NCBI GenBank assembly: GCA_029059055.1
Contig: JAIDWS010000035.1
Location: forward strand, 8,670 to 72,669
Origin: Alphaproteobacteria bacterium
Lineage (GTDB): Bacteria; Pseudomonadota; Alphaproteobacteria; Rs-D84
Direction: 5' to 3'
DNA length: 64,000 nt
Shown here piece after piece: positions 5,006 to 60,867 of the stretch (within the stretch, counting starts at the first letter, position 1; every line of letters starts with the position of its first letter). The notes below the pieces were generated by a model. It did not search any database and was not told the origin of the DNA. It saw only the letters and a program-made list of their open reading frames with translations. The translations under genes and the position numbers were made by a program.

Positions 5006-5068
5006 ACCTACTAATATCACGGGTATTATAACATAAAAATACAACCCACGCAAAGCGTTAATTATTCC

Positions 5069-14446: not shown

Positions 14447-15235
14447 ATGAAATTTGTTTTATGGACAATTGCGTGCGTGATGGGGATGCCGGCGGTGGCA
14501 TGGGGCGTATGCGATGGGGGAATGTATTTAAACGGCACCACATGCGAAAAATGCGTCGATGGGTATTATTGTCCCGGTGACGACACGCAACATCCATGTC
14601 CGACGGACACGACCGATTGGTACGGATTCGTATCAACACTGTACCCGGTGGACCGGGTGACGCAACAATCATGGCTGATGTCGTGGGACCCCGGTTCATC
14701 GACAAACGGGGCCATCTGGCCGGCGCATTGTTTCGCAGGTGTCTTTATATCCAGCCCATATGGGGAACTGTATATCGAAAGCTGGTATAACGGCACCAAT
14801 TACTGGAACGGCGAACAGGCGTTTTTGTGGTACCAGGCCAACCCCGGATATTATTTGGCCCAATATGTCGGGACGACATATCATGTCTGGTACCGATACG
14901 CCCGGCCATGCACAAATCTGCCGGAACATGCACATTATACCGGCGCCGGCACGCCCGATTCCGCCGATGGCACCATTCGGGATGCAAACGATTGCCCGTG
15001 GGAATGCGATGACGGATACGGCAATCATGACGGGGTGTGCGTGCCGTTGTGCGACGGCGTCAATCGGTTAAAGACCGGCAACGGTCGAACATTTAATTTA
15101 TACCCCATGGCATATACCACGCCGTCATTGCGCATTGAATATGGCGGCAAAACATGCTATGGCGTGTTAAAGTCGGGCGCGGCCGCATCAATCAATCTGC
15201 GATACAATAACCAAACGTATCACCTGTCTGACTAA
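14447..15235 (+). CDS. Secreted cysteine-rich protein (signal peptide; CEKCVDGYYCPG furin/TNFR-like Cys repeats; Trp/Tyr-rich core)
   Basis: Signal peptide MKFVLWTIACVMGMPAVAWG; Cys spacing reminiscent of eukaryotic Cys-rich repeats. Confidence 0.5.
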   Translation: MKFVLWTIACVMGMPAVAWGVCDGGMYLNGTTCEKCVDGYYCPGDDTQHPCPTDTTDWYGFVSTLYPVDRVTQQSWLMSWDPGSSTNGAIWPAHCFAGVFISSPYGELYIESWYNGTNYWNGEQAFLWYQANPGYYLAQYVGTTYHVWYRYARPCTNLPEHAHYTGAGTPDSADGTIRDANDCPWECDDGYGNHDGVCVPLCDGVNRLKTGNGRTFNLYPMAYTTPSLRIEYGGKTCYGVLKSGAAASINLRYNNQTYHLSD

Positions 15236-28541: not shown

Positions 28542-29075
28542 TTATACACGTTCCACCTGGGTAAAGTCCAATTCCACACTGGTTTCACGTCCAAAGACCA
28601 AAATGGTCACGGTCATTTTCTGCTTTAAATTATCCACTTCGGATGCGATACCGTTAAAGTTCGCAAACGGTCCGTCGATAACATGAACTTCTTGGCCGAC
28701 TTCGTATTCGACATCGTCCATAACGACCGCCCCTTCTTCGACCTGCTTTTGCAGGCGACGGGCTTCTTCTTCGCTGACGGCGATGGGTTTATTCTTCTGG
28801 CCCAGGAACATAACCACCTGGGGCATTAATTTCACCAATGAAAATGTTTCGTTGGTCAACACCATCTGCACGACGATATAGCCCGGGAAAAACTTTTTTT
28901 CAGATTTAACGCGCTTGCCGGCCTTTACTTCTGTAACTTCGCGTGTCGGGACCAAAATTTCCCCAAACAACGCGTTCAAACGACGCTTGTCAATCTGTTC
29001 ACGCAAACCACGTGCGACCTTGTCTTCGCACCCTGTGTGAACATTTACGACAAACCACTGCATTTTGCCTTCCAT
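28542..29075 (-). CDS. nusG: Transcription termination/antitermination factor NusG
   Basis: NGN and KOW domains. Start ambiguous (MEGKMQWF...); an alternative start is 29063. Confidence 0.9.
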   Translation of the reverse strand: MEGKMQWFVVNVHTGCEDKVARGLREQIDKRRLNALFGEILVPTREVTEVKAGKRVKSEKKFFPGYIVVQMVLTNETFSLVKLMPQVVMFLGQKNKPIAVSEEEARRLQKQVEEGAVVMDDVEYEVGQEVHVIDGPFANFNGIASEVDNLKQKMTVTILVFGRETSVELDFTQVERV

Positions 29076-29094
29076 ATGCACTTCCTTTGCCCGT

Positions 29095-29274
29095 TTAGAA
29101 AATCCAACCAACAATCGCGTTCAGCACGCTGTCGACAACAAAGAAGAACAGCGCCGCCAAACCAGAAAACACCAGAATCATGATAGTTGTACGAATAACA
29201 GTATCACGCGACGGCCAAACAATCTTGAACCATTCGCTACGAACCGATTTGATATATTCTAGTAATTTCTTCAT
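29095..29274 (-). CDS. secE: Preprotein translocase subunit SecE (short single-TM form, 59 aa; found by manual translation)
   Basis: MKKLLEYIKSVRSEWFKIVWPSRDTVIRTTIMILVFSGLAALFFFVVDSVLNAIVGWIF*. Canonical position between tRNA-Trp and nusG. Confidence 0.8.
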   Translation of the reverse strand: MKKLLEYIKSVRSEWFKIVWPSRDTVIRTTIMILVFSGLAALFFFVVDSVLNAIVGWIF

Positions 29275-29370
29275 AAATAAAAATCCGGTTTTTTATCAGT
29301 ATTCCTGGCGTTTTTGCGACCACATGACATCCAAATGTTCAAAACATGCCTTCGCCATGTTTCAGGAATT

Positions 29371-29444
29371 TGGCAGGGGCAGAAGGAATCGAACCCTCAT
29401 CCGCGGTTTTGGAGACCGATATTCTACCGTTGAACTATGCCCCT
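29371..29444 (-). tRNA. tRNA-Trp (anticodon CCA)
   Basis: Reverse complement AGGGGCATAGTTCAACGGTAGAATATCGGTCTCCAAAACCGCGGATGAGGGTTCGATTCCTTCTGCCCCTGCCA; 74 nt. Confidence 0.85.
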
Positions 29445-29644
29445 GTTTTGTATCAGCGACAAATCAACACACGGCCCCAAACGCCTGTATTTCATCTGTC
29501 CCCCATACCGCTTTACGCCAGTAGTCTGCGCTACAATAGCACAAACATTCCAGAAATCAAGCGGAAAGTATTATAAGACTTTAATCGGTCCAGCGCAAGC
29601 AATTTTTCATTTCCCCCATGCTTTTGACCAATAAAAACATGTAA

Positions 29645-29673
29645 TTGACACACTTTTCGCTTGCGCATATGCT
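29645..29673 (+). promoter_or_regulatory. Sigma70-like promoter TTGACA-17-TATGCT upstream of the virB8-like operon
   Basis: Hexamers at 29645-29650 and 29668-29673. Confidence 0.5.
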
Positions 29674-29716
29674 TATTTTTTGTCTACAATTCCATTAATA
29701 GAAGGGAGAACAGGCC

Positions 29717-30376
29717 GTGGCAGACCGCATAGAGCCGCCGATTTTACTGTCCAGACTGATGACATTCGTCTTTGCCGCCGCGTTGGTGGTGGTGGTCGTA
29801 TTGGTGGTCACACTGGCCAAGATGTTCCCGCTGAACCGGCCCCAGATATTCTTTTTAACGACCCAGCCGCGCGCCGATTTGGAAATCCGGCTGTATCCGA
29901 TGCCGCCCAGCGACGAAAACGTTGATATTTACAAGCGCAGCTTTATCAAGGAATATATCAAGGCCCGCAATGAAATCATCCCGAACGTCGGCGTAATGCG
30001 CCGCAAATGGTCAAATACCGACGACGGCATCGTGAACATGTGGTCAACACCGGATGTGTATGCCACCATGACCCAGACGGATTTATGGACCGCGTACATG
30101 AACGATGTGCCGGACACAGAATTCTATTGCCCGGTGGAATTTGCCCCCAACGCCATTGCCCCGCGTTCAGAAAACACATATGCGGTCAGTTTTACGTATT
30201 TTTGCACAAATAATAATGGACAGACCGATAAAAAAGATTATACAATTGTAATCAGATTGGAATCTGACGAAAACCCGACGATTAAGTGGGGGGACCGCCT
30301 GAATAACCCGTTGGGGATTCGTGTGGCCGAATATACGGTTGAATCCGGAAACGGTGACCCGTTGGACTTTAAATAA
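29717..30376 (+). CDS. virB8: VirB8/TrbF-like bitopic inner-membrane protein (short cytoplasmic tail, one TM, periplasmic domain with C-terminal NPLG motif); GTG start
   Basis: Topology and C-terminal ...RLNNPLGIRVAEYTV (NPxG motif of the VirB8/NTF2-like family). First gene of a 3-gene operon with VirB9/VirB10 homologues. Confidence 0.5.
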   Translation: MADRIEPPILLSRLMTFVFAAALVVVVVLVVTLAKMFPLNRPQIFFLTTQPRADLEIRLYPMPPSDENVDIYKRSFIKEYIKARNEIIPNVGVMRRKWSNTDDGIVNMWSTPDVYATMTQTDLWTAYMNDVPDTEFYCPVEFAPNAIAPRSENTYAVSFTYFCTNNNGQTDKKDYTIVIRLESDENPTIKWGDRLNNPLGIRVAEYTVESGNGDPLDFK

Positions 30377-30415
30377 ACCGGCGCGTCGGACGATATACTA
30401 AGGAAAGGGACCATA

Positions 30416-31954
30416 ATGACTTTTTCAAAAGCATTGAAGTTAAACGTATCCGTAATTTGCCTGGGGGCGTTGTGCTGTGCGGCACCGGCCGGGGCGGCGA
30501 CCGAATACGGGATTCAATCGGCATGGGACAATCCCAACGCCAACATGGCCGCCGGCAGTATTAAGCCCGGATATGCCCAGTTGTCTTGGTCCGCGGGCAA
30601 TGTTTTGCCGATTAAATTGCGCAATGGTATGGTGACAATGGTCACGTTGCCCAACGGCGAACAGATTGCCGACGCCCAGATTGGTAACGCCGGTCTGTTT
30701 GATATCCAGGCGACCCAGGGTGAACGCACCATGTTCATCAGCCCCATGCCGGACAATCTGGGGTCGGATACGAACCTGATTGTGATTGGCAAATCGGGCA
30801 ATGTTTATACTTTTTATCTGCGCAGCGAACCGTCGAATTCCAGTGAAATCACCCATTCCCAGGTGGACGTCGTTCTGGACGGCAACGCCAGTCTGCCGAT
30901 GGCATCGGCCACCGGCACCACATCGGGCGGCATGAATTCTATATTCAAGAAAAAGGCGTCATCGACCGCATCCACTGTTGGTGTTGACGGCGAAGATTAC
31001 GGTTGGATTAAATCGATGAAAATCGACCCGTCGGAATTTCGTTTCGATTTGGATATTTTCGTACCGAACCCGGATGATTACGTCATTGCGCCCGAACGCG
31101 TCTGGCGCGACCGCATCTTTACATACATTGATTTCGGGGACAAAGTCATCGCCATGACCCAGCGTCCGGTTGTATCCCTGTTGGTCGAAGGTGGCGAATC
31201 CCCGGTCGGATTCCGCACCGATGGCGAAGACGGTCGTCTGTTAATTGTCGAAGCGGTTGGCGACATGGTTCTGCGCAGTGGCCAACGCATCGTTTGTATT
31301 AAAAAGCGTGAAAAACCGTTCTTGATTGCGGATACGGCGTCTGTTATGGCATTGGCCGAAGCGAACGTTGCCCAATCCATGTTGTCGGGTCAATCGCTGA
31401 ACAATATTGCGTATAACGCAGACCTGGCCGCGATGAGTGGGTCTGTCAACAATTACACCACGACACCAATGTTTTCGTATAATGGCGCCGCGCCCCAGCA
31501 GATGAACGCCGGCGTATACGGCGGATATTATGCACCCACGGGTTATAATGCACCGGCACCGACATCGGGTGGTGTGACCATGTTGCCGACCGAACGCAAC
31601 ACGGCGGGGGCATATTTGCCGCAAACAAACATTCCGTTAATCACCAGCAACCAAACCGGCGTTGCGGTGGAATTGAAATCCGACACATCGGTCAAGGCTT
31701 TGAATGATTACTGGACGGGCTTGCTGGCGAAATTCAGCGGCGAAGACGGCCAGGGTCTGTTGACACCGTACAAAGACAGCGTGTTCTTTGCGGTCGATGA
31801 ACAGGGTGTCGGCGACCTGGGGGCGGATTCATCAACGGCGCGCCTGTACCGTTTGCGCATCGGGCCGATGTCCGACATTGACACCGCCCAGCGTCTGTGT
31901 GACCAGATGTTGAAATTCAGCGGCACCAGTTGCCACGTTGTGCGCATTCAGTAA
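30416..31954 (+). CDS. virB9: VirB9/TrbG/CagX-like protein with a low-complexity linker and a C-terminal SPOR-like domain
   Basis: Signal peptide; N-terminal domain ...TNLIVIGKSGNVYTFYLRS; C-terminal beta-sandwich ...GDMVLRSGQRIVCIKKRE. Terminal RLRIGPMSDIDTAQRLCDQMLKFSGTSCHVVRIQ resembles the FtsN SPOR domain (RVVIGPVKGKENADSTLNRLKMAGHTNCIRL). Confidence 0.7.
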   Translation: MTFSKALKLNVSVICLGALCCAAPAGAATEYGIQSAWDNPNANMAAGSIKPGYAQLSWSAGNVLPIKLRNGMVTMVTLPNGEQIADAQIGNAGLFDIQATQGERTMFISPMPDNLGSDTNLIVIGKSGNVYTFYLRSEPSNSSEITHSQVDVVLDGNASLPMASATGTTSGGMNSIFKKKASSTASTVGVDGEDYGWIKSMKIDPSEFRFDLDIFVPNPDDYVIAPERVWRDRIFTYIDFGDKVIAMTQRPVVSLLVEGGESPVGFRTDGEDGRLLIVEAVGDMVLRSGQRIVCIKKREKPFLIADTASVMALAEANVAQSMLSGQSLNNIAYNADLAAMSGSVNNYTTTPMFSYNGAAPQQMNAGVYGGYYAPTGYNAPAPTSGGVTMLPTERNTAGAYLPQTNIPLITSNQTGVAVELKSDTSVKALNDYWTGLLAKFSGEDGQGLLTPYKDSVFFAVDEQGVGDLGADSSTARLYRLRIGPMSDIDTAQRLCDQMLKFSGTSCHVVRIQ

Positions 31955-32000
31955 TCAGTTGGGGGGACCGCATACACATGCGGCGGGTAACGGGTAACAG

Positions 32001-34436
32001 ATGAATAAGATAGCCAAACAATTTTCCGACCTGCGTCAGACAACGCCAAAGCATATCCAGTGGTTACTGTTGGTGGCGGCGTTTATCGTTGTGTTGATTT
32101 TGTTGACACTGTTGCTGCGGGGGCGCGCGGATAAATCCGACGCCGTAACATTGCCCGACGATGAAAATTTGACATTGACGATTGACCCCGACAGCGTGGA
32201 TTGGGCCACCACCACCGTCGGCACGAAAAAGACGCAAAAAATCACCATATCCACCACCGGTGCGGTAAAAATTGTGGCGGTACGTCTGTCCCGCGAAGTG
32301 GCGGGATTATCCACCCCCAAAACGACATGCACCAACATGGGTGAAATCAATGACAAGATTTCATGTACAATCAACCTGACCTATGAACCGACGGTCCCGA
32401 TGGATACAACGGGGGTATCGCTGTTTGTGGATTGGCGTGGCGTGGACGCCCCCGACGGCATGACGCGCGCGGAAAAAATCCCGATGGCGCTGGGGGCGGT
32501 GTCGCCCACCCCGGTGATTCAACCGGCGACAAAACCGGAACCGGCGATCATTGAACCGACCCCGGAACCGACGCCTGTGGTCATGCCGGAACCCGAACCC
32601 AAACGTTCCGAACCGAAACAGGAAATCCAACGTGACATCGCAACCATCGCGCCCCCTGTGCCGATGATTGATTCCAAATCGGAACCGACACCGACGGTGA
32701 CCAGTGCGCCGGCCATCGCCACCCCGGTTTCAGACAACGCCCCCATCCCGACGGATGGCTGTTCGGATTTTTCATTCCCGGGATATAACACATCGGGTCA
32801 ACAGATTGGGTGGATAAAACCGGACCGCGGTGCGTATTATTTCTATCCATTTTCGGACCGCGAATGCAAAAACGCCACCGGCAAATATAATCCCGACAAC
32901 GGTATTATCACGGCCATCAACAATCCGGCCCAGAAAATCGGAACAGACGCCGAACATATCGGATACACAACAATATCCAATGGTTCGGTACCGCAATTGT
33001 CGAACCCGGCGGACACCCGAAATGTTAATCGGGCGCGCCAACTGACCAGTGCTGAATTGACCCAATCCATGGGCGGTGGCATGGGCGCGGCCCGCGTTAA
33101 TTTGAACCCGGCCCCGGCATCGGATATTTTATATACGACATCCGACACAAATGTTATTCCATCAACCCAGCCGTATGACCGGTCGTTCATCCTGCGCCAA
33201 TATAAACCGATTCCGGCCACCATCGTATCTGATGTGCGCGCCGACGCCACATTGATTAATGGCCAACAATTCTTGCCTGTGCGCGCAACGGTTGACCGCA
33301 ATGTGTATTCGGACAACGGCCGTACGGTTATTATCCCGACCGGGACATTGATGTTGGGGTATGTCACCGGCGAAGTGCCCGGCCCATACAAGACCATTGG
33401 TCGCATGGAAATCAAATGGTACCAGTTTGTTTTGCCCAACGGCGTTGAATTTAATTTCGGCGGCGCGACCGATCCGTTTTCCGGTGATGCCCAGGGGCGT
33501 ATTGGCGTTCCCGGCCGGGGCAGTACGGATTATCTGGAACAATTTGTGATGCCCATGCTGACGGCGATTGTACCGGCGGCGGTCAACATGATTGCGCCCA
33601 TTGCGGATAAATTTGTGAACCAAATTGATTTGGATAACAATACGGTTGTGCAATCCGGCACGGTCCGTTCATCCGAATTGGCGAAAAATGAAATCATCAC
33701 GGCCTGGAACCAGGTGGCCCAGAAATTAATGGTCGACATGATGGACAACACCACACCGCCATTTACCATTGCGGCCGGGACACGCATTACGGTTTATTCG
33801 CCCCAGGATTTGGCGGTGGTCTGCATGGATGATTCCAAGAAATGTTCGTTACAACATTTAATGCAAAAATCCCCGACGGGTAACTCTGCGCGTGCGACCC
33901 CATCGCCTAATATCACATATAATCCCAATGACGGTTCATGGGTTGGCCAGGCACGTTCATTTAACATGGATCAATATTGCAAACAAAATGCGAACAAGGT
34001 TTGGGAAGTAGACAGTTCGCTGGCGGCACAAATCACCCAAGATTCCGGGTATTCATACAGCACCGTGGTTGCGTATTGCCAATCCAAGAATTACCAGGCC
34101 ATTAATAATGCCAGACAAGATGCCCTGTTCCAGAACCAGCAACAGACATTTGGCCAGAATGTAACATCCAGTTCCACAAATCTGACGGGGATATCTGGTG
34201 ATACCACATATAACCAGGAAATCTTGGGCTTGAAATATAACGACAATGGCACTATACAAAATCCGTTCCAGCAATTACCGGTTGAAACACCGCCGGCGCC
34301 CACCCTTACATGTGAAGATGGGACCAACCCGGATGCCAACGGTTGCTGTACCGGGGAAATCTATACCGACATGGGCGACCAGGGATTTAACTGTTGCCCG
34401 GAAACCGGTGGCGATTGTTTCCCGCCGATATTATAA
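32001..34436 (+). CDS. virB10: VirB10/TrbI-like protein (N-terminal TM, Pro-rich linker, VirB10 beta-barrel domain) with a ~250-aa Cys-rich C-terminal extension
   Basis: Pro-rich PTPEPTPVVMPEPEPK. VirB10 domain: IPATIVSDVRADATL..VRATVDRNVYSDNGRTVIIPTGTLMLGYV..RMEIKWYQFVLPNGVEFNF..GDAQGRIGV..TIAAGTRITVYSPQDLAV. Extension ends CCTGEIYTDMGDQGFNCCPETGGDCFPPIL. Confidence 0.75.
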   Translation: MNKIAKQFSDLRQTTPKHIQWLLLVAAFIVVLILLTLLLRGRADKSDAVTLPDDENLTLTIDPDSVDWATTTVGTKKTQKITISTTGAVKIVAVRLSREVAGLSTPKTTCTNMGEINDKISCTINLTYEPTVPMDTTGVSLFVDWRGVDAPDGMTRAEKIPMALGAVSPTPVIQPATKPEPAIIEPTPEPTPVVMPEPEPKRSEPKQEIQRDIATIAPPVPMIDSKSEPTPTVTSAPAIATPVSDNAPIPTDGCSDFSFPGYNTSGQQIGWIKPDRGAYYFYPFSDRECKNATGKYNPDNGIITAINNPAQKIGTDAEHIGYTTISNGSVPQLSNPADTRNVNRARQLTSAELTQSMGGGMGAARVNLNPAPASDILYTTSDTNVIPSTQPYDRSFILRQYKPIPATIVSDVRADATLINGQQFLPVRATVDRNVYSDNGRTVIIPTGTLMLGYVTGEVPGPYKTIGRMEIKWYQFVLPNGVEFNFGGATDPFSGDAQGRIGVPGRGSTDYLEQFVMPMLTAIVPAAVNMIAPIADKFVNQIDLDNNTVVQSGTVRSSELAKNEIITAWNQVAQKLMVDMMDNTTPPFTIAAGTRITVYSPQDLAVVCMDDSKKCSLQHLMQKSPTGNSARATPSPNITYNPNDGSWVGQARSFNMDQYCKQNANKVWEVDSSLAAQITQDSGYSYSTVVAYCQSKNYQAINNARQDALFQNQQQTFGQNVTSSSTNLTGISGDTTYNQEILGLKYNDNGTIQNPFQQLPVETPPAPTLTCEDGTNPDANGCCTGEIYTDMGDQGFNCCPETGGDCFPPIL

Positions 34437-34437
34437 G

Positions 34438-34463
34438 CCCGCATCATGCGGGTTTATTTTTAT
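34438..34463 (+). terminator. Rho-independent terminator (cccgcatcatgcggg with T-run) ending the virB-like operon
   Basis: Hairpin with T-run immediately after the stop codon. Confidence 0.6.
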
Positions 34464-34696
34464 CACTTTTTAAAACCGCAATTTTTTGGGGCGCACTGAT
34501 ACGCCCCAAATTCTGCGTCAATCACATGGTGAACCGGGCGGCATCGCAATGCGATTCGAACAGCCAAAAATAAAACCGCCCAGCGAATCAGATTTCCGAT
34601 TTGCACTTCAACCGTTGGTTGTAACATTTTACAGGAAACAATTCATATTTTATATATAAAAAGTCCGCAATATTTTATCAACAAGGAGAGTGAAAA

Positions 34697-35044
34697 ATGA
34701 CACAACAAACCATGCAGACATCCATCCCGGCCGAAAAGTTTCAAAGTGCGGAACAACTGTGGTTTTGGTTTTTGTACGCGCGCAGCGTACGCAATGGGTT
34801 TGTCCGGGGCCACATGTCGTCCCAGCGTCGCGTATGCGAATTGCTGGACGTGGAAACATTGGTAACGAAACTGTATTTGGCGGGTCGGTTATCCGACGCG
34901 CAACTGGCCGTCATGAAAGAATTTGGCGACCGGCGCCGCGCCCCGCACCAGCACATCTGGGCAGAAAATAAAAAGGCTGAATTATGGCGCACCGCCATGT
35001 CGGTTTTAAATGCTGCGGCGACCGCACGTGGTTGGATTGAATAA
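34697..35044 (+). CDS. Hypothetical protein (115 aa)
   Basis: RBS caaggagag; no recognisable motif. Confidence 0.35.
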   Translation: MTQQTMQTSIPAEKFQSAEQLWFWFLYARSVRNGFVRGHMSSQRRVCELLDVETLVTKLYLAGRLSDAQLAVMKEFGDRRRAPHQHIWAENKKAELWRTAMSVLNAAATARGWIE

Positions 35045-35066
35045 CATACCGGGGGAAAACCAAGTC

Positions 35067-35414
35067 ATGATTATCATTGCATTTGCCCAAACCACATCCC
35101 GGATATGGCCACGCATCGTTTGTCGACATTTCCGCCACAGTGCCGTTATCGTCCCCCATGGGGATAAATTGGTATTGTATCAATTCACACGCCGGGGCAT
35201 GGTCAACACATTGACCATCAGCCCACGTGACATTCAAATCTTGGGACGGCATGGCTGGGCGTTTATCTATCTGCCGGGCAATCTGGCATCAGATTTCTGT
35301 GGCACCGATGCCCGCACATGCGTTGATATGGCCAAACGCGCCGCGGGGATTCGTGCCCCATGGGTTCAAACACCACTGGCATTGTATAAATATCTGATGC
35401 GCCGCACATTGTAA
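35067..35414 (+). CDS. Hypothetical protein (115 aa from the SD-supported start MIIIAF...)
   Basis: SD gggggaaaacc; conserved Cys/His positions but no confident family. Confidence 0.3.
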   Translation: MIIIAFAQTTSRIWPRIVCRHFRHSAVIVPHGDKLVLYQFTRRGMVNTLTISPRDIQILGRHGWAFIYLPGNLASDFCGTDARTCVDMAKRAAGIRAPWVQTPLALYKYLMRRTL

Positions 35415-35423
35415 CACCGGATA

Positions 35424-35455
35424 TAAAAAATCCCCCGTTCGGGGGGATTTTTATT
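35424..35455. terminator. Bidirectional terminator aaaaaatcccccgttcggggggattttt
   Basis: Between convergent genes; overlaps the yidC stop. Confidence 0.5.
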
Positions 35456-37037
35456 TCCGGGTGGACCGTTTAATGATGTACATCTGGCCGATACCAAACA
35501 AATTCGACACCGTCCAATACAACACCAGTCCCGCCGGCATCCATGCAAACATCACGGTGAACAATACCGGCATCCATTTCATCATGCGCTGTGTCTGGGC
35601 GGCGACATCATTTCCGGTGGTGGCACCGCCGGATTGCAAACGCTGTTGCCACCACATTGTCGCCCCCATCAGCACCGGCAGAATAAAGTACGGGTCCATC
35701 ACCGCCAAATCCGAAATCCACAGGAATTGCGCACTGCGCATCTGGACCGAAATCAATAACGCTTTGTACAATGCAAAGAAAATCGGAATCTGAATCAGCA
35801 TCGGCAGACATCCCGACATCGGCGACGTCTTGTGCGTTTGATACAGACGCATCATTTCCATCTGCATGCGCGGTTTATCATTGGCGTACAGCTTTTGAAT
35901 ACGGGCCATTTCCGGCTGCATTTTTTGCATGGCCATCATCGACGTATACGATTTGCGTGTCAACGGCCACAAAATCCCGCGCAACGCCAGCGTCAGCAAA
36001 ATAATCGCCACGCCATAATTCATCACAATCCCATACAGCCCGTTTAACGCCCACAGCATTGGCCGTGCCAAGAACCAAAACCAACCGTAATCCATTGTTT
36101 TATCCACACCCGGAATAACTGTTGCGGCCGCGGACAAGATACGCTGTTCGCGCGGACCGGCATACAAATGCGTGGTTATCGTTTCGGTTTGACCGTTGGC
36201 CACCTGGCGCGGGCCGGCGGCGGCATCCACCTGGAACCGGGCAACGTCGTAATTGTCATCCAATTTTTTCATCCGGATGGTTTGATCGGGTGAATCAATG
36301 GCGACAAAGGTTTCCCAGTATTGGTCCGCAAATCCGACAAATCCGTTTGTTGTCGTATACGCATACGCCCGGCGGTCCAAATCGCGCCAATCTTCGCGTT
36401 CGATATCGGAATTAATGTACGCCATGGCGCCGGTGAACACACCGGCCGACGATTTATCCGCATTATCGCGCACAATGCGTGCATACGGGGCAATGCTGAT
36501 GTCGCGCCCGCTGTTGTTTGTAATTTCATCTGTAACGGTAATGATATAATTATCGCCGGACACCGTACGCCGATATGAAACGCCATCGGCGTTACGCCAT
36601 GTCATGATACCACTCGTCCCATCCACACGCCATGCGGTATTGGCCGCCGGCGCCGTGGTGCCGGTCGCCAACAATCCGATTTCTGCGAAATCCGCATCAC
36701 CGTTCAACAACGTGACCGGCCCGTCTGTTTCAGATTTCTTGGATTTGGCAAAATCCTTTAACTGAATCCGATTGATGCGCAGTCCCTGGACCCGGGCGTC
36801 AATCACATCGGTGGATTCATTAAAACTGGGAACCGCCGACATATCAACGGCCGGTGCCGGGGTGGCGACAACATCAGTATGCTTTTTCGGGCCGAACCAG
36901 ACGGACACCAACCACCACGAAATCAAAAACAAAATAATCCACCACAGAACACCGGAAAAGCGCGGCTTTTTCACCGCCGCGCTGTTATTTGCGTTCCATT
37001 GGTTGAAACCAGAATTTTTATCCAAGAACTTTACCAT
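35451..37037 (-). CDS. yidC: Membrane protein insertase YidC
   Basis: Large periplasmic domain then 5 TMs; C-terminal ...GLVLYWTVSNLFGIGQMYIIKR. Confidence 0.85.
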   Translation of the reverse strand: MVKFLDKNSGFNQWNANNSAAVKKPRFSGVLWWIILFLISWWLVSVWFGPKKHTDVVATPAPAVDMSAVPSFNESTDVIDARVQGLRINRIQLKDFAKSKKSETDGPVTLLNGDADFAEIGLLATGTTAPAANTAWRVDGTSGIMTWRNADGVSYRRTVSGDNYIITVTDEITNNSGRDISIAPYARIVRDNADKSSAGVFTGAMAYINSDIEREDWRDLDRRAYAYTTTNGFVGFADQYWETFVAIDSPDQTIRMKKLDDNYDVARFQVDAAAGPRQVANGQTETITTHLYAGPREQRILSAAATVIPGVDKTMDYGWFWFLARPMLWALNGLYGIVMNYGVAIILLTLALRGILWPLTRKSYTSMMAMQKMQPEMARIQKLYANDKPRMQMEMMRLYQTHKTSPMSGCLPMLIQIPIFFALYKALLISVQMRSAQFLWISDLAVMDPYFILPVLMGATMWWQQRLQSGGATTGNDVAAQTQRMMKWMPVLFTVMFAWMPAGLVLYWTVSNLFGIGQMYIIKRSTRK

Positions 37038-40890: not shown

Positions 40891-42003
40891 TTAATGAAAG
40901 ATAAAACAATCGATACCGTTGGCCGATGCGTTGGCTTTCAAATTGGCCGCCGCACCGTCTGATAAATTATTCACGCGCACCCGGAACATTCCGTTCGGCG
41001 CCGGTTCAATTGTCGGCGTGACATTCAACGCCGCACGCACGCGCGCAATCTGGGTCTGGGCCGCGTCCCGCGATGCAAATGCCCCGAATTGAACACCCGC
41101 ATTTCCCGGCGTATGCGTTGTCGGGGGCGTCGTCACAGTTGATGCACGCACCGGCACATTTTGCGTTGGCGCCGCGGTTTTTGTGGATTGAACCGTTACC
41201 GGCGCGGTGCCGTTGTCCAACATGGCGAACCCCTTGTTCAACATGTTTGTCGACACAGCCGCCCGAACATCTTTGTTTTCCGCCCCCAACACCACCGATA
41301 TCAGACGACGGTTTCCCCGCTTGGCCGTGGCGACCAATGAATATTTGGATTTGTTGGTAAATCCGGTCTTCATCCCGTCACAGCCCGGATACGTTCCCAA
41401 CAACCGGTTACCGTTGGTATATGTTTTTCCGTTATACGTCCACGATTTGATGCCGAAATATTTCCAATATTGCGGAAAATGTTTATACACCGCCATCGAC
41501 AATAATGCGATGTCCCGGGCGGTTGACATCTGGTCATCGTTGGGCAACCCGGATGAATTTTCAAAGTGCGTTTTGGCCAATCCGATTTCGGTGGCGACGC
41601 GCGTCATCAGTGATGCAAAGTTCCCTTCTTTGCCACCCTTTAAATTTTCGGCCAACACGCGTGCGACATCATTCGCACTTAACACTGCGACGGCCTTAAT
41701 CGCGTCTTCGACGGTGATTTTGCTGCCCGCGGCCAGCCCCAGTTTAACCGGCGACGCGTTTGCCGCCGATTGCGACACAATCAGATAATCATCCAGATGT
41801 AACCGTCCATGTTCCAACGCATCAAACGTCAGATACAACGTCATAATTTTGGTAAGACTTGCCGGGTAATTCAAATCGCCCGCATTTTCAGAATACAGCA
41901 CACGCCCCGTATCCATATCGGCAACCAATGCCGCGCGATATCCACCGGCATTTGCCACCCCACACAGGCATATTAATAAAAAGGATACGATGCCAAATCT
42001 CAT
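40891..42003 (-). CDS. D-alanyl-D-alanine carboxypeptidase (PBP5/DacC-like) with a C-terminal SPOR domain
   Basis: SLTKIMT (SxxK), SGN, KTG motifs; C-terminal ...FRVRVNNLSDGAAANLKANASANGIDCFIFH. Confidence 0.8.
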   Translation of the reverse strand: MRFGIVSFLLICLCGVANAGGYRAALVADMDTGRVLYSENAGDLNYPASLTKIMTLYLTFDALEHGRLHLDDYLIVSQSAANASPVKLGLAAGSKITVEDAIKAVAVLSANDVARVLAENLKGGKEGNFASLMTRVATEIGLAKTHFENSSGLPNDDQMSTARDIALLSMAVYKHFPQYWKYFGIKSWTYNGKTYTNGNRLLGTYPGCDGMKTGFTNKSKYSLVATAKRGNRRLISVVLGAENKDVRAAVSTNMLNKGFAMLDNGTAPVTVQSTKTAAPTQNVPVRASTVTTPPTTHTPGNAGVQFGAFASRDAAQTQIARVRAALNVTPTIEPAPNGMFRVRVNNLSDGAAANLKANASANGIDCFIFH

Positions 42004-44077: not shown

Positions 44078-46069
44078 TTGCGAATGCGTGGTATAAATTC
44101 CTATACTCTATCCATGCGGGAATTTATCAGCGAACAGTTTGCAAACCGGTTCTTGTGGACGCCATTCTTGATGGCGTTTGGTGCGGCGTTGTATTTTGCC
44201 ATGGGCACCGAACCCGTCATTCCCGGGATGGGCATTATGGCTGCGATACTGTTTGCGGCCGCGTTTGTTTCGCGCATACCGCTGATTCTGCGCGGGATGT
44301 TTCTGTTCGCATTTGGATTCTGCTATGCGGCGGCATTTACACATGTTATCGACACACCGCAAATTTCACGCAATTTGCGTGACCTGGATATTTCCGGAAC
44401 AATCACCAAAATTGAATATACAGATACCAAGACGCGTGTCCATATTCGCATCCCGGCCAATTTGATTAACCGCGATATGCCGCAACACCGCCACGCAAAC
44501 ATCCGCGTATCAATGTCTGAAATGCCAACGCCCATCCATATCGGCGATATCATTGATGCGCGCGTTTCACTGTTTCGACCGGCCGGCGCATATATGCCCG
44601 AAACATTTGATTATGCACGTTGGACGTATTTCAACAGATTGTCCGCAACCGGTTTTGTTCAAAATTATACCGTTACCCCAACCCAGACCCGCAATATCAA
44701 CACGATGCGTGATGCGATTCACAACCATGCGCATTCGTTTTTGTCCGACACACTGGTTCTGGGATATAAATCGGCATTACCGGATGACGACCGCACCATT
44801 TGGACGACAAACGGTGTGGGTCATGTTTGGTCCATCAGTGGATTTCACATGACATTGGTGTCGGGATGGTTATTTGCGTTTTTCTATTTAATCTTTCGCA
44901 TGATATCACCATTGACCCGGCGCGTACCGGCCCGCATCCCCGCCATGATTTGCGCATGGGTGGGATTGCTGTTTTATCTGTTTCTGTCGGGTGGCGGAAT
45001 TGCAACCATCCGTGCATTTATGATGACCAGTTTAATCTTTGCGGCATTTGTCAGTGGCCGCGAAGCCCTGTCGATGCGAAACATATGCCTGGCATTTTGT
45101 CTGATATTTCTGATAAATCCGCACTATGTCATGCAACCGGGATTTCAATTATCATTTTCCGCCGTGTTTGGATTGATTTGGTATTTTCGCGACACCACGT
45201 ATCAAAAACGCACATTGCCCCAGAAAATCAGACGCGCCATTTGTGCCGCGGCCATGACATCGGTCATCGCCACGATTTTCACCATGCCGTTTGTCGCCGC
45301 CCACTTTTATCAAATACCGACATATTCACTGATTGGCAACCTGATACTGTTGCCGGTGTTTTCCGTGATGATTATGCCACTGGTCATGGTGGGGACGTTA
45401 ACCGCAACATTGGGATGGACCGGCCCGTTGGTTTTGGCGGAAATGATTTACAACGTTGTGTTGGTGGTGGCGACCCGGATTGCGTCATTGCCGTTTGCCA
45501 CCATATTGACACCGCATGTGCCAAACAGTGCGATTGTATTCATGATATTGGGATTTTTGTGTCTGATGTTTATCCGCGCATCACGCCCCAGAATCAATTA
45601 CATATTATGCGCGACATGTATCGGTGTCGGCATGGGTATCACCGCATTAACACCGCGCCCGATATTCTATGCAACGGCCGACCATGAATTGATTGGATTT
45701 GTGGCGGCGGATGGTAAACTGGAATTTAACAAATCGCGCGCATCCAATCATTTCTTTGCGTTCGACACGTGGAAGCAAATAAATATCGAACCGCCCCGCA
45801 CACCAAACCGTCGGCGTAAATGCGTACATGGTGTTTGCAAATTTGAAACTGAAAATTGGATACTGGCATATACCCAGAAATTTGTACCGACGATGAATAA
45901 TATTGTTCAATTTTGTCGCGACCCGTCAATTGATTACATCGTGTCATATTTTGATATCGATGCACCGCACTGTAACCATAAAATTCTGCGGGGCGGATTT
46001 GCGATTTATAAATCCGGTCGCGTGCGCCATGTGACTATGCGTCGTCCGTGGCATAATCCGCGCCGATAA
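44078..46069 (+). CDS. comEC: ComEC/Rec2-family DNA-internalisation membrane protein (no C-terminal beta-lactamase domain)
   Basis: Polytopic; ...VGHVWSISGFHMTLVSGWLF... competence-domain signature. Confidence 0.7.
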   Translation: MRMRGINSYTLSMREFISEQFANRFLWTPFLMAFGAALYFAMGTEPVIPGMGIMAAILFAAAFVSRIPLILRGMFLFAFGFCYAAAFTHVIDTPQISRNLRDLDISGTITKIEYTDTKTRVHIRIPANLINRDMPQHRHANIRVSMSEMPTPIHIGDIIDARVSLFRPAGAYMPETFDYARWTYFNRLSATGFVQNYTVTPTQTRNINTMRDAIHNHAHSFLSDTLVLGYKSALPDDDRTIWTTNGVGHVWSISGFHMTLVSGWLFAFFYLIFRMISPLTRRVPARIPAMICAWVGLLFYLFLSGGGIATIRAFMMTSLIFAAFVSGREALSMRNICLAFCLIFLINPHYVMQPGFQLSFSAVFGLIWYFRDTTYQKRTLPQKIRRAICAAAMTSVIATIFTMPFVAAHFYQIPTYSLIGNLILLPVFSVMIMPLVMVGTLTATLGWTGPLVLAEMIYNVVLVVATRIASLPFATILTPHVPNSAIVFMILGFLCLMFIRASRPRINYILCATCIGVGMGITALTPRPIFYATADHELIGFVAADGKLEFNKSRASNHFFAFDTWKQINIEPPRTPNRRRKCVHGVCKFETENWILAYTQKFVPTMNNIVQFCRDPSIDYIVSYFDIDAPHCNHKILRGGFAIYKSGRVRHVTMRRPWHNPRR

Positions 46070-55557: not shown

Positions 55558-56148
55558 ATGGCTGCAAAGACAATTTATATTTTTAGACATGGTCAAACAG
55601 ACTATAACGCCACAGGGCGCGTTATGGGTCGGTTGGATATACCATTGAACGAAACAGGGATACAACAGGCAACAGAACTGGCCAATAAAATGTCGGGCAT
55701 TGATATTAAGGCAATATATTCTTCGCCACTGTCACGTGCGATGCAAACAGCACAAATCGTGGCTAACAAAATCGGCGTAAAGATAACACCAAATGACGGG
55801 TTAATGGAACGACATAATGGGAATCTGCAAGGGCATATTGTTCATATAACAGATAATCCCGAACAATATCAGACCGACTATAAACAAACAGAACTTGTTT
55901 TGCCGGCAGAACAATTAAACGATGAAAATTGGCGACCCGAAGGCGGTGAATCACGAATAGAATGCTTTAAACGCGCCCAACAAACGATTACGGACATCAT
56001 AAAAACATCCCCTTATGACACAATTGCCATATCAACACATGGCGGACCAATGGTCGGGATATTGGATTTAGTTGGCGGCACATCAGAGCGCATTGGAAAC
56101 TGTGACTATGTAAAATTAACCTTTGATGGTAAAAAGTTAGAGAGATAA
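55558..56148 (+). CDS. Histidine phosphatase (phosphoglycerate-mutase-like) family protein
   Basis: IYIFRHGQTDYNATGR (RHG catalytic motif); ...STHGGPM... Confidence 0.75.
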   Translation: MAAKTIYIFRHGQTDYNATGRVMGRLDIPLNETGIQQATELANKMSGIDIKAIYSSPLSRAMQTAQIVANKIGVKITPNDGLMERHNGNLQGHIVHITDNPEQYQTDYKQTELVLPAEQLNDENWRPEGGESRIECFKRAQQTITDIIKTSPYDTIAISTHGGPMVGILDLVGGTSERIGNCDYVKLTFDGKKLER

Positions 56149-56254
56149 AATTTAACATAGGGCATCCGTTGCCCTATGTTTTTAATACAGACTTCACTGA
56201 TTCAATTTCATCTCTCATTTTGATTAAATCAGTTCGAAAATTGCTAGTCAGACA

Positions 56255-56343
56255 CAACCACAGTTAAAAAATCCGCCCACCGGGGCGGTTTTTAGTTGAA
56301 TCTGCAATCATCGTGCCAAGTTCGAATGTTTGATTTTCAAAAT
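56255..56343 (+). repeat. att-like direct repeat 3 (degenerate copy)
   Basis: aaccacagttaaaaaatccgcccaccggggcggttttt..tgcaatcatcg..agttcgaatgtttgattttcaaaat parallels copy 2. Confidence 0.55.
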
Positions 56344-56391
56344 CGTTAATTTTTGATAACTTTCGAACTTGTTTATGGTATAATATTCTAT

Positions 56392-57489
56392 ATGAAAACA
56401 GATAGTTATACAAAAGCCATAGACAATATTTATAATCGGATTGGCCATGCCGTAGTACAAGGTATACCAACCTTAGATCATATTATGGGTGTTGAAAATA
56501 TGTCTGAAGCAGATAAAATCTGGTACGAAGCATATAAAAAATACGGCAACCGAAATCACACATGGCAAGATTTTAGAGATATGTTTTATGGTGATGTTGA
56601 CGTTATGCAAAAGACAGTTGTACACTGGAAAACATGGGACGAAATAAATAACACGTTATCACAAGCATATGATTTAGTGCCAGAAATAAGAAGATTGATG
56701 AGAGAATATGGTATTAACTCTATCAATGTGACCAAATTAGAAGAATACAAACAATACCCTGATTTAGTATCAGTCTGCAAAAAATATCGTGAAATTGGTA
56801 GTATGGCGTATCAAAACTATTCTACATTTAATCCACAGATTGCAAAACTGGAAAAAGCGTTCGAAAAAAAATCGAAACTGATAGCGGTCGATGACAAAAA
56901 AGCAAAAATTGATTTAATTGTAGAATACCTAGAAAAAATGGATGAGTATGTAGATTTGCAAAATGGCGATTTTGTCGTTGCAGAACGCATAGAAACATAT
57001 CGTGAAATTATATTAAAAGACCAACAAATATTAAAGCTGGCAAAAGATTTTGATAAAATATCTGGCTCACAAAAGGTTGATTTAGCACGTATGATTTTAA
57101 ACAAAAGTGCAAAAATTACAGGCACACCAACAGGCCAAGTTATTCAAGATGACGCCCCGGCTGGCCCGCATGTCCTAACCGGTAATCAAGTCGCCGGATA
57201 TGTTGAGAATCGTAAAGAATTTTTATTCAGAGGTGATGATTTAACGACCCTATGGACCTTTTTGAAATATTTGGTCCATGAAGATGCTCATAGAATAGAT
57301 TACTATAATGCAGAATATGGGATGATTGGAACGCAACTTATGAAATTTGTGAATGATAATTATGTTAATAATGCAGACATAGATGTTGAATTGTATCGTA
57401 AATTTGCCACAGAACAAAGTTCATATTATCTTGATCGCACTACGGCTTCTGCTTTAGAATATGCAATAATGCATCAATCTCGTGGCTAA
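56392..57489 (+). CDS. Hypothetical protein (366 aa) in the AT-rich island
   Basis: AT-rich; no recognisable motif. Confidence 0.4.
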   Translation: MKTDSYTKAIDNIYNRIGHAVVQGIPTLDHIMGVENMSEADKIWYEAYKKYGNRNHTWQDFRDMFYGDVDVMQKTVVHWKTWDEINNTLSQAYDLVPEIRRLMREYGINSINVTKLEEYKQYPDLVSVCKKYREIGSMAYQNYSTFNPQIAKLEKAFEKKSKLIAVDDKKAKIDLIVEYLEKMDEYVDLQNGDFVVAERIETYREIILKDQQILKLAKDFDKISGSQKVDLARMILNKSAKITGTPTGQVIQDDAPAGPHVLTGNQVAGYVENRKEFLFRGDDLTTLWTFLKYLVHEDAHRIDYYNAEYGMIGTQLMKFVNDNYVNNADIDVELYRKFATEQSSYYLDRTTASALEYAIMHQSRG

Positions 57490-57621
57490 TCTTAATTAAA
57501 TCAATTCAACTACGCATAGGTAAGCCAAACGTAGTGTCGGCGAACCGTCAGGAATACCGCACTGAAGCAATACAGGACTGAATAGAAGTGTTTCTAGCGT
57601 TTTTGTTCATCGAAGAAGTAA

Positions 57622-58829
57622 TTAATCATAAAACACAATTAACTGCTCAAGAGATATATTAACACCTGCTTTTTGTAATTCTCTGATATTGGTTTCATAA
57701 AGCTTTGTTAATATATCGCGTTTTTCATTATCTGTTGCCAAATGTACCTGCCGATGACAGACAGGACACAGAGCAACGATATTTTCAACAATATCAATAT
57801 TTACATCAAACTCATTGCGTTTACAAAACGGTATCAAGTGATGCCCTTCTACAAATGGCATATTGTTAGCTTTGGCTGTAAATGTTCTATGACGCGGATT
57901 CACTTCACACATATAACGACTGCGCAATTTTCGCGCTTCTTTAACATTTGGATTGGCATGTAATAACGTATCTACATCGTCATCATTGTCTAATCCTAAA
58001 GCTAATCGTTTCTTTAATAATTCTTGCTCTGCAATTCGCCCATCTTGATAGTCTATCGCTAATTTGTTTATCTGTAATGCTCTGTTATAATTCTTATATT
58101 CCTTTACATTAGATAAATCTTGTTTATCAAAATACAAACCATCTATCTGTGTAAGATGCTTCCCGGTTTCCTTTTCATAAAAAGACCTTTTAAAGGGATA
58201 CAAGAATCCATATTCAGACACAAAAATTTTTAGCGGTATTCTGAACTGGTCGTTCTTTGCCTTACTATTTTTTTGCAATACTCGTGGATTAAAATTAAAA
58301 AATTGTCCAGTCATATTAGACAGTGTCATATATTTACGCCTGGCTAAATTTGGATATTTTTTCTTTTCCCAATCAACAGTTACCAGTTTTCTACTAAAAT
58401 CCAGTGAACAACGAGCATTAAATAAACCAGAAACAAAATATCGAATACATTCGTTTGAAAAATCCATTGTAGCTTTTTCAATATACCCATAAATGCGCGC
58501 CCTGCCTATTTCAGTAGTATCATCTAAACTATTAGTTTCAGTAAATTTGACAGAACAAACCCAAGATGTCTTATTAGACGAACAATCTATATCATCAGAT
58601 AATATCGCAGTTCCTTTGATAAAGTCTGCAAGAACTTGCCTGTTTGGCTCATTTAATTGCGTGTATTCATTATCACTAAAATTCTTGCGTATTCTAGTGC
58701 CTGTCCTTCCAGACGAATATGCCAACACATAACCATTTTTTACAATTGGCCAACCATAAACCATGCCCAAAAAGAATGCATATTTAGGATTTTTTTTGGA
58801 TTGTTCAAGTAATTCATTAAATGTCATTA
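57622..58829 (-). CDS. HNH-nuclease-domain protein, putative restriction endonuclease
   Basis: C-terminal ...FVEGHHLIPF...NIVALCPVCHRQVHL (HNH, Zn-binding Cys). Adjacent to two DNA methyltransferases. Confidence 0.55.
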
Positions 58830-60612: not shown

Positions 60613-60867
60613 CTCATTTCTTTTCCGTCTCTTTGAGAATGAATTATAATAAAGTCAATAAAAAAATGATATAAAAAAATTATATCATCCCATATTCTAC
60701 TTGTTATCCGTGGCTTCAAGTAAACAAGTACACACAAACTGTGTATACATAATGAGCAAGATCCACATAAAAAGAAAATATACGTATACAGAAAGCTCGG
60801 GATGCCCTTTACACACAAATTACTAAGCCACCCAACAAAAATAAAACCCGCCGGGTGGCGGGTATGA

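Follow-up and report, generated by a model that had tools for sequence, protein, structure and literature searches.

The 64,000-nucleotide stretch of DNA analyzed here (hereafter the window; positions 8,670 to 72,669 of contig JAIDWS010000035.1, assembly GCA_029059055.1) comes from Candidatus Enterousia, a gut alphaproteobacterium of the order Rs-D84 with a genome smaller than 1 Mb, and contains a compact operon of three co-directional genes with homology to components of type IV secretion systems (T4SSs). All three lie on the plus strand: gene A (29717-30376; an open reading frame (ORF) of 219 amino acids (aa)) is VirB8-like, gene B (30416-31954; 512 aa) is VirB9-like with a putative C-terminal SPOR domain, and gene C (32001-34436; 811 aa) is VirB10-like. 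The ORFs are closely spaced, with 39 nucleotides (nt) between A and B and 46 nt between B and C. An original prediction, made from the DNA alone, had proposed a VirB8-VirB9-VirB10-like trio at this place, and it was confirmed by the ORF map, by scores above the gathering cut-offs (GA) of Pfam for all three profiles (PF04335, PF03524 and PF03743), and by fold matches. Since AlphaFold2 (AF2) models of these proteins were of moderate-to-low confidence overall, only their confident domains were used in the domain assignments that follow.

For gene A, the Pfam VirB8 profile PF04335 scored 48.5 bits (GA 23.2; E 1.3e-12) over profile positions 8-210 of 213, and the NPxG motif reported earlier is present as NPLG at residue 197. 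The sequence has a short cytoplasmic N-terminus, a transmembrane helix at residues ~15-35 and then a periplasmic part, and we predict a bitopic inner-membrane protein with a periplasmic NTF2-like domain. We know of no role for VirB8 beyond the assembly of T4SSs at the inner membrane. The product of gene B begins with a signal peptide, followed by an N-terminal domain (residues 57-140, nt 30584-30835), a C-terminal domain of the VirB9 core (residues 189-300, nt 30980-31315), and a low-complexity linker that joins the latter to the SPOR domain (residues 413-512, nt 31652-31951). The CagX/VirB9 profile PF03524 covers residues 55-297 with 77.7 bits (GA 34.2; E 1.4e-21), and a Foldseek search with the N-terminal domain retrieved the corresponding domain of R388 TrwF/VirB9 (TM-score 0.65-0.68; for 7o3t_B, E 1.1e-7, TM-score 0.65 and root-mean-square deviation 3.3 Å), with further matches to 6gyb_B, DotH and CagX; this agrees with the beta-sandwich that forms the I-layer in solved core complexes and bears out the assignment to VirB9/TrbG/CagX. 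The AF2 model of B has a mean predicted local distance difference test score (pLDDT) of 46; in this monomer model the C-terminal core domain reaches a pLDDT of only 23-35, despite 99% sequence conservation. The PF05036 (SPOR) score of B is 20.5 bits, just under the GA of 21, and several of its Enterousia homologs have precomputed matches to this family. In the AF2 model, residues 415-511 form a beta-alpha-beta-beta-alpha-beta unit, for which Foldseek found the SPOR domain of RlpA (6i09_A; probability 0.99, TM-score 0.60). Profile and model thus both point to a C-terminal SPOR domain. No gene for a VirB7-like lipoprotein was found in the operon.

Gene C encodes the largest and most elaborate protein of the three. 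Its VirB10/TrbI beta-barrel (residues 385-606, nt 33153-33818) was located by Pfam, AF2 and Foldseek: the TrbI/VirB10 profile PF03743 scored 64.9 bits (GA 35; E 1.1e-17) over residues 400-604, and the fold matches include CagY from the Helicobacter pylori outer-membrane complex, VirB10 of Xanthomonas citri, pKM101 TraF (3jqo) and ComB10, in support of the barrel assignment made originally. Mean pLDDT is 59 for the whole model and 45-70 for the barrel. Two hydrophobic or amphipathic antenna helices (residues 509-583, nt 33525-33749; AF2 helices 509-545 and 557-583) are set into the barrel and, by analogy with pKM101 TraF (3JQO), probably line an outer-membrane pore. At the other end of the protein, a conserved 16-residue cytoplasmic tail precedes the inner-membrane transmembrane helix predicted by AF2 (residues 17-43, nt 32049-32129); tail and helix region are 79% identical between species, with R12, P16, Q20 and W21 invariant. 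Between helix and barrel lies a periplasmic immunoglobulin (Ig)-like sandwich of the ASH/PapD type (residues 58-167, nt 32172-32501; AF2 pLDDT 80-89), for which Foldseek found the PapD-like domains of CEP192 and HYDIN and for which there are weak matches to Pfam ASH and to NCBIfam choice-of-anchor D; C110 and C122 are invariant in it (alignment A1). It is followed by a Pro-rich linker (residues 171-253, disordered in AF2) and a small beta domain of unassigned type (residues 254-320, nt 32760-32960; AF2 pLDDT about 80), in which 30 of 67 columns are invariant, and whose C254 and C289 are invariant even in relatives at 23% identity. Beyond the barrel, a lineage-specific helical domain (residues 655-721, nt 33963-34163; AF2 pLDDT 65-82) is not found in the second tier of relatives described below, whose match stops near residue 610, and the protein ends in a Cys-rich module (residues 771-811, nt 34311-34433; C..PD.NGCC.GE.YTDMG..GFNCCP..GGDCFPP). 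The same module occurs in one to three copies in small secreted proteins or lipoproteins (P0182, P0201, P0202, P0206, P0231, P0238, P0250 and P0268) and appears to be an undescribed extracytoplasmic domain. The stricter NCBIfam equivalog models were missed by both larger proteins: B scored 52.4 bits against the VirB9 model TIGR02781 (cut-off 217.7), and C scored 61.1 of 220 bits for VirB10 and 50.4 of 300 bits for ComB10 (NF038091, NF038092). With scores so far below these cut-offs, the proteins are divergent family members and not orthologs of those in the model systems.

To place the operon in its lineage, one genome per GTDB species was scanned with C, which gave relatives in 329 species, of which the best 80 were analyzed. 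These 80 genomes stem from the gut of humans, mice, chickens, horses and ruminants and are titled Candidatus Enterousia, 'uncultured Rickettsiales bacterium' or Alphaproteobacteria bacterium. Two of them are complete chromosomes, OZ007020.1 (958,618 bp) and OZ246409.1 (716,531 bp). The latter (locus L065) is titled 'uncultured Muribaculaceae bacterium' and bears an Enterousia-type locus with the same synteny, so that its taxonomic label is probably wrong. Hundreds of full-length homologs of C are also encoded in metagenome-assembled genomes from the gut. Across the 80 loci, the order nusG, A-B-C, two small genes D and E, yidC and lspA is nearly universal. Median identity to the window protein is 59% for A, 76% for B and 56% for C, next to 62% for yidC and 68% for lspA. 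Against the closest species, A, B and C have ratios of nonsynonymous to synonymous substitution rates (dN/dS) of 0.03, 0.024 and 0.13, respectively, with recR, yidC, lspA and ksgA at 0.09-0.12; since synonymous divergence (dS) in this comparison is 0.44-0.88, synonymous sites are not saturated. The trio is, in other words, chromosomal, vertically inherited at a fixed site and under strong purifying selection. Within the proteins, the VirB9 C-terminal core domain of B is 99% identical (99 of 112 columns invariant) and the antenna of C 93% (52 of 75 columns invariant), followed by the barrel of C with 77-82%; the added modules are likewise retained, with 86% for the SPOR domain, 89% for the Cys-rich tail and 77% for the small beta domain. 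Conservation thus peaks in the putative O-layer and pore parts, which is where an assembled core complex would need it.

The operon is also delimited by its own signals. The original prediction had named a sigma70 promoter, TTGACA-17-TATGCT (29645-29673, plus strand; 10 of 12 consensus matches). This sequence is indeed present, but its hexamers fall in non-conserved columns of an alignment of 12 species, and the closest species (L004) reads TTGCCA and GGCGCT at these positions; moreover, the region holds 10 promoter-like sites where 9.3 are expected from shuffled sequences. As a conserved promoter, this candidate was therefore rejected. The same alignment (A6) contains two invariant upstream blocks, TTTTnnCTTGC and TTTTTTGTCTACAAT, and we infer that the promoter of A-B-C is instead TTGCGC (29661-29666) and TACAAT (29685-29690) on the plus strand, with an 18-nt T-rich spacer. 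On the minus strand, a third block, also invariant in A6, consists of TTGCGC (29598-29593), a 17-nt spacer and TATAAT (29575-29570), and would be the divergent promoter that faces and drives tRNA-Trp-secE-nusG. Neither of the two was picked up by a standard scan based on TTGACA. Both share a -35-like CTTGCGC, a spacer of 17-18 nt and TATAAT or TACAAT, and this type of promoter may be the housekeeping consensus of the lineage. A Shine-Dalgarno sequence (AAGGGAGA, 29702-29709, plus strand) lies 7 nt before the GTG start of gene A, and a GGGAG or GGAGA motif with a GTG or TTG start is kept before gene A in the 12 species of A6. At the other end, an intrinsic terminator (34433-34467, plus strand) has an 11-bp stem, a 3-nt loop and a T-run. 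The clean terminator claimed earlier is therefore real, and it is conserved in kind: in 89 of 96 related loci, the VirB10 stop codon is followed by a hairpin with a T-run, the stem of which differs in sequence between loci. Having its own conserved promoter and terminator, A-B-C can be regarded as a transcription unit of its own.

Its neighbors are housekeeping genes, as had been stated: tRNA-Trp, secE, nusG, the genes for L11, L1 and L10, and rpoBC upstream, and yidC and lspA downstream. Here the tRNA-Trp gene (29371-29444) was the sole Rfam match in 29000-35500, with no riboswitch or small RNA found in that interval, and secE occupies 29095-29274. The one correction to this picture is that two conserved small genes stand between the operon and yidC. 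Gene D (34697-35044, plus strand), encoding a cytoplasmic protein of 115 aa, starts about 260 nt past the A-B-C terminator, and gene E (35067-35414, plus strand; 115 aa) is followed by a bidirectional terminator (35431-35446), so D and E belong to a separate transcription unit outside the terminator-bounded operon. Gene D is present in most of the 80 loci, with a median identity of 66% and a dN/dS of 0.05; E has a median identity of 45% and a dN/dS of 0.14, and is likewise found at this place in the majority of Enterousia species. Neither protein has a match in Pfam, NCBIfam, PHROGs or PDB. By analogy with EcxR of the Ehrlichia vir islets, it is conceivable that one of them is a small regulator.

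The surroundings of the operon vary in some relatives. In two Enterousia species (L062 12980-22209 and L043 6584-15994), different DNA follows VirB10, in which three genes of 400-450 aa with prepilin-like N-termini accompany one for a secreted protein (1,058-1,163 aa), a possible sign that the lineage has a type IV filament or pseudopilus system. The DNA downstream of C in L043, L062, L046, L071, L073 and L074 comprises a gene for a large secreted protein along with pseudopilin-like and housekeeping genes, and no T4SS parts. Divergent lineages of Rs-D84 have insertions between secE/nusG and VirB8 whose variable genes encode proteins of 288-916 aa with signal peptides (L117 3958-6708, L090 6220-7674, L096 6267-7133, L120 5624-6748 and L135 5954-6889). 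These could be surface proteins or substrates; no T4SS parts were found among these insertions between nusG and gene A.

The remaining parts of a T4SS were sought first of all in the DNA around the operon. The claim that VirB4, VirB11, VirD4 and VirB6 are absent within 25 kb on either side was borne out by scans of the window, in which a Pfam search of the less obvious ORFs and a search for Walker A motifs in ORFs of at least 80 aa found neither a T4SS ATPase nor another component. The ~10 kb beyond each window end in the 89-kb source contig hold housekeeping genes only and no T4SS part; the DNA covered in this way around the locus is ~10% of the genome. Relaxase and integrase genes and repeats were likewise not seen around the trio. 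There is thus no complete T4SS locus next to the trio, which is in this sense not an ordinary fragment of a conjugative element.

We then asked where else such proteins occur. In an exhaustive search of representative sequences, the family of C comprised about a dozen clusters at 50% identity that match over the full length. A second tier of relatives at 23-40% identity has the N-terminal domains and the barrel in common with C, and more distant generic VirB10 and CagY-like proteins match the barrel only. In a scan of metagenomes with the second tier, the majority of loci came from other Rs-D84 lineages and had the same synteny; the scan also gave two further groups, which we called X and Y. 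Group X (L085, L086 and L094; GC content 33-59%) has VirB8, VirB9-SPOR and VirB10, with SPOR scores of 26.3 and 26.8 bits, above the GA of PF05036. Group Y (L154, L156-L160, L162 and L164) has VirB8, VirB9-SPOR, a giant VirB10 and then a VirB11-type ATPase directly after VirB10 (T2SSE, E 1e-19 to 1e-22), with unrelated genes beyond; the slot held by VirB11 there is the one in which gene D sits in the window. The group Y VirB10 has an N-terminal ASH domain, beta-flower repeats and a TrbI barrel; it is about 2,100-2,200 aa long or split in two. Between ASH domain and barrel there are 8-11 of these repeats (PF21785, PF21784) together with DUF3659, and the giant VirB10 loci (L154 4667-11077, L164 1935-9989 and L160 4961-11629) are of a scale like that of CagY. 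Within 10 kb of four group Y loci (L154, L157, L160 and L164), ORF lists and Pfam revealed no VirB4-like gene, and beside the L164 locus, the genes without Pfam match (139-848 aa) lack both a Walker A motif and homologs in the window. In all loci examined within the family, then, the VirB8-VirB10(-VirB11) block stands apart from any VirB4-like gene. A profile built from nine group Y VirB11 sequences was also run against a collection of 5.8 billion proteins. It gave at least 120 matches, and those listed all belong to the group Y lineage (64-78% identity), with no identifiable Enterousia protein among the matches listed; as group Y filled these, the search is uninformative on Enterousia.

The best annotated matches of the B core (38% identity, E 5e-44) and of C (30%) lie on one and the same plasmid, NZ_CP031358.1 of Erythrobacter aureus YH-07 (408 kb), at a locus that encodes a relaxase, VirB2, a VirB3-like protein, VirB4, VirB5/6-like proteins, VirB8, VirB9, VirB10, VirB11 and VirD4. 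Pfam detects no SPOR domain in the Erythrobacter VirB9; its tail aligns with the C-terminus of the window SPOR domain at 36% identity over 44 aa (E 4e-5), and this complete system may therefore have a VirB9 with a SPOR-like tail. Identity ranking, NCBIfam scores and PDB matches together suggest an affinity to the VirB/Cag/ComB type of system (mating-pair formation type T, MPF-T) and none that would be specific to Trb or Dot. In its gene order, the trio corresponds to an uninterrupted stretch of the standard MPF-T locus, domesticated from a VirB-type system. The original prediction had further read the domain fusions as fitting a non-canonical machine. This argument was weakened, as the same VirB9-SPOR and Ig-VirB10 coexist with VirB11 in group Y. 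Considering that group Y keeps VirB11 and that the VirB9 of the complete Erythrobacter system is weakly SPOR-like, the SPOR and Ig fusions are no evidence that ATPases are missing.

Enterousia has been placed in the order Rs-D84, with genomes of roughly 0.7-1.0 Mb; it has no tricarboxylic acid cycle, no respiration and no nucleotide biosynthesis, its glycolysis is incomplete and standard transporters are lacking, and it is predicted to be obligately dependent on partner cells, via unknown "intercellular connections" with them (PMC12306168). We consider it most likely, with a probability of roughly 55%, that A-B-C is the scaffold islet of a split T4SS and that a VirB4-type ATPase, at the least, is encoded elsewhere in the genome. 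We give preference to this reading because two known systems, rvh and ComB, are split alike, and because the fusions give no reason to assume a machine without motors. In Rickettsia, the rvh genes virB8/9/10/11/D4 lie far from virB3/B4/B6 (PMC2653234), and ComB of H. pylori is encoded in a comB2-4 and a comB6-10 operon, has neither VirB11 nor VirD4 and works with ComEC (PMC7366825). Furthermore, the retention of VirB8 and of the conserved cytoplasmic tail of VirB10 implies that there are inner-membrane partners. In such a machine, for which the core-complex roles of A, B and C are modeled on pKM101, R388, X. citri and Cag, B and C would assemble as an outer-membrane core complex of the 14-fold type, with the antenna of C as the outer-membrane pore. 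C would span back to the inner membrane via its Pro-rich linker and transmembrane helix, and A would work on the side of the inner membrane. The SPOR domain of B may pin the core complex to peptidoglycan, as the domain model suggests, and the Ig-like, beta and Cys-rich modules of VirB10 would be lineage-specific periplasmic additions. A VirB4-type ATPase and VirB3/B6-type inner-membrane parts would be encoded elsewhere in the ~0.7-1 Mb genome, and the machine would serve partner dependence, through contact-dependent exchange with other cells or uptake of DNA or macromolecules from them.

Several observations weigh against a split T4SS. No VirB4, VirB11, VirD4, VirB6, VirB2 or VirB3 was found in ~84 kb of the contig or in the +-10 kb around the operon in the 80 species. 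The group Y position of VirB11 is taken in the window by an unrelated 115-aa gene, the group X trio stands alone in unrelated housekeeping contexts, and the proteins are so divergent that the VirB9, VirB10 and ComB10 equivalog cut-offs of NCBIfam are far off. In addition, the only genome study of the lineage reports no secretion system and does not mention the VirB8/9/10 trio (PMC12306168). Part of this evidence speaks for an alternative that we think possible, if on balance unlikely, namely that only VirB8, VirB9 and VirB10 were kept, as a self-assembling, peptidoglycan-tethered, envelope-spanning core without ATPases, which could act as a passive conduit, as a junction or adhesion platform to partner cells, or as a tether between outer membrane, peptidoglycan and inner membrane. 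Besides the lack of ATPases in the ~84 kb and around the 80 loci, this alternative can draw on the metagenome loci examined, where VirB11 of group Y is the only ATPase, on the loss of this adjacent VirB11 in Enterousia, and on the solitary group X trio in its differing contexts. Genome reduction to 0.7-1.0 Mb is extreme, hence retained genes should be needed, and the added modules (SPOR, Cys-rich tail, beta domain) are conserved like the canonical parts. The VirB7/9/10 core of pKM101, in work of 2009 by Fronzes and by Chandran, reportedly assembles without the remaining subunits, which is a further point in its favor. However, of all T4SS proteins only VirB4 is ubiquitous, and T4SS derivatives without ATPase are not known (PMC4027160), only ~10% of the genome has been viewed, and in comparable reduced genomes split loci are the norm. 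The fusions again do not help this alternative, as they occur beside VirB11 in group Y and, weakly for the SPOR-like tail, in the Erythrobacter VirB9; nor do the retained VirB8 and VirB10 cytoplasmic tail, which suggest inner-membrane partners. A more far-reaching version, in which an ATPase-independent, peptidoglycan-anchored pore or junction takes metabolites or macromolecules from partner cells throughout Rs-D84, strikes us as rather doubtful. Should ATPases be absent genome-wide, the rule that VirB4 is indispensable would be overturned, and this would be the first VirB4-free T4SS derivative.

A functional sub-case of the split T4SS would be DNA uptake as in ComB, in which the trio imports DNA over the outer membrane to ComEC and so supplies nucleotides or genes, driven by a lone VirB4/ComB4-type motor encoded elsewhere. 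A full-length ComEC is encoded in the window (44078-46069; Competence PF03772, E 5.9e-54, plus DUF4131), in a genome below 1 Mb and a lineage lacking nucleotide biosynthesis; ComB does without VirB11 and VirD4, has comB8-10 separate from comB4, and its ComB10 ranks with the top matches of C in PDB and NCBIfam. Yet ComEC occurs widely and is no hallmark of ComB, C falls far short of the ComB10 equivalog cut-off (50 of 300 bits) and scores higher with the VirB10 model, and ComB6 and ComB7 are not in the operon. The closest annotated relatives are, moreover, conjugative VirB proteins of Alphaproteobacteria and not epsilonproteobacterial ComB, and the pseudopilin-like genes at some Enterousia loci fit the usual uptake route via type IV pili, so that we regard this sub-case as improbable. 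Independently of the trio, the retention of ComEC in the absence of nucleotide biosynthesis suggests that DNA uptake may serve nutrition. Finally, being an internal slice of a canonical conjugation operon with no other transfer genes nearby, the trio could be taken for a functionless, decaying remnant of a plasmid or integrated conjugative element. In that case, the ORFs would not be expected to be preserved intact at one site in the 80 best of 329 species, with dN/dS values of 0.02-0.13 that are comparable to or below those of housekeeping neighbors. The GC content of the operon is like that of its flanks (0.53 versus about 0.50), neither integrase nor relaxase nor repeats are seen, and promoter, Shine-Dalgarno sequence and terminator are conserved. 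As synteny and dN/dS show that the genes are maintained, we ruled out such a remnant on the grounds of conservation, fixed site and dN/dS.

The trio is a concrete candidate for the partner-cell interface of a transporter-poor, widespread and uncultured lineage, from which the trio had not been reported; the literature searched contains no account that links VirB8/9/10 with SPOR, RF32 with T4SSs, or names of Rs-D84 or UMGS with T4SSs, and a study of cervid colonization factors names the genus and no more. Its genes evolve as slowly as ribosome-associated and membrane-biogenesis genes, and the locus defines a T4SS subfamily with VirB9-SPOR and VirB10-Ig. Solitary trios, VirB8-VirB11 islets with giant VirB10 and a complete conjugative relative together form a series in which domestication can be studied.

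Some other features of the window should be mentioned. A D-Ala-D-Ala carboxypeptidase (Peptidase_S11) with a C-terminal SPOR domain (30.9 bits) is encoded at 40891-42003 (also at L001 18939-20111 and L003 18943-20115) and, in the window, lies about 9 kb from gene B; it is a second envelope protein with a SPOR domain. Two further ORFs encode envelope proteins that are unusual in an alphaproteobacterium: a Protochlamydia-type outer-membrane protein (Pom, PF17251, E 1e-10) at 3524-5182, and, at 14447-15235, a secreted protein of 262 aa that is rich in Cys and has a weak TNFR-like match. A low-GC island at about 56000-60800 (0.34-0.35 versus about 0.50) contains an HNH-endonuclease-like ORF and a C-5 cytosine methylase, to which the called genes of L167 add an N6/N4 methylase, and is probably an acquired restriction-modification cassette.

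Compared with known systems, the trio has the same families in the same VirB8-VirB9-VirB10 order as canonical VirB/VirD4 (MPF-T) systems, and its folds match R388 TrwF and pKM101 TraF. The canonical systems also have VirB2-B6, VirB7, VirB11, VirD4 and a relaxase, none of which is found here within about 84 kb. Unlike plasmid-borne MPF-T systems, the Enterousia trio is chromosomal, sits at a fixed housekeeping site and is vertically inherited, and its VirB10 carries extras in the form of the Ig-like domain, the Cys-pair beta domain, the helical C-terminal extension and the Cys-rich tail. The likeness to rvh is one of organization only: both are chromosomal and vertically inherited in host-dependent Alphaproteobacteria with reduced genomes, and in both virB8/9/10 lie together. 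However, islet C of rvh also has virB7, virB11, virD4 and duplicated virB8 and virB9, whereas the Enterousia genes are single-copy with no adjacent VirB11 or VirD4; Enterousia belongs to Rs-D84 and not to Rickettsiales, and the trio does not qualify as a member of rvh. To our knowledge, SPOR and Ig fusions are not features of rvh. ComB resembles the trio in that comB8-9-10 stand apart from the ATPase operon and that VirB11 and VirD4 are lacking, and ComEC is present in the Enterousia window. The ComB operon includes comB6 and comB7, in contrast to that of Enterousia, whose gene C also scores below the ComB10 cut-off; we know of no SPOR, Ig or Cys-rich additions to ComB9 or ComB10. Group Y belongs to the same subfamily as the trio, with a B core that is 45% identical, a VirB9-SPOR, an ASH/Ig domain after the transmembrane helix of VirB10 and a chromosomal location. 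The differences are the giant VirB10 and the adjacent VirB11 of group Y, compared to an 811-aa VirB10 and no adjacent ATPase in Enterousia. Group Y genomes reach about 1.9 Mb, with one locus that also has fliI/fliJ-like flagellar genes, and in size and repeats this group in turn resembles CagX and CagY of the Cag system.

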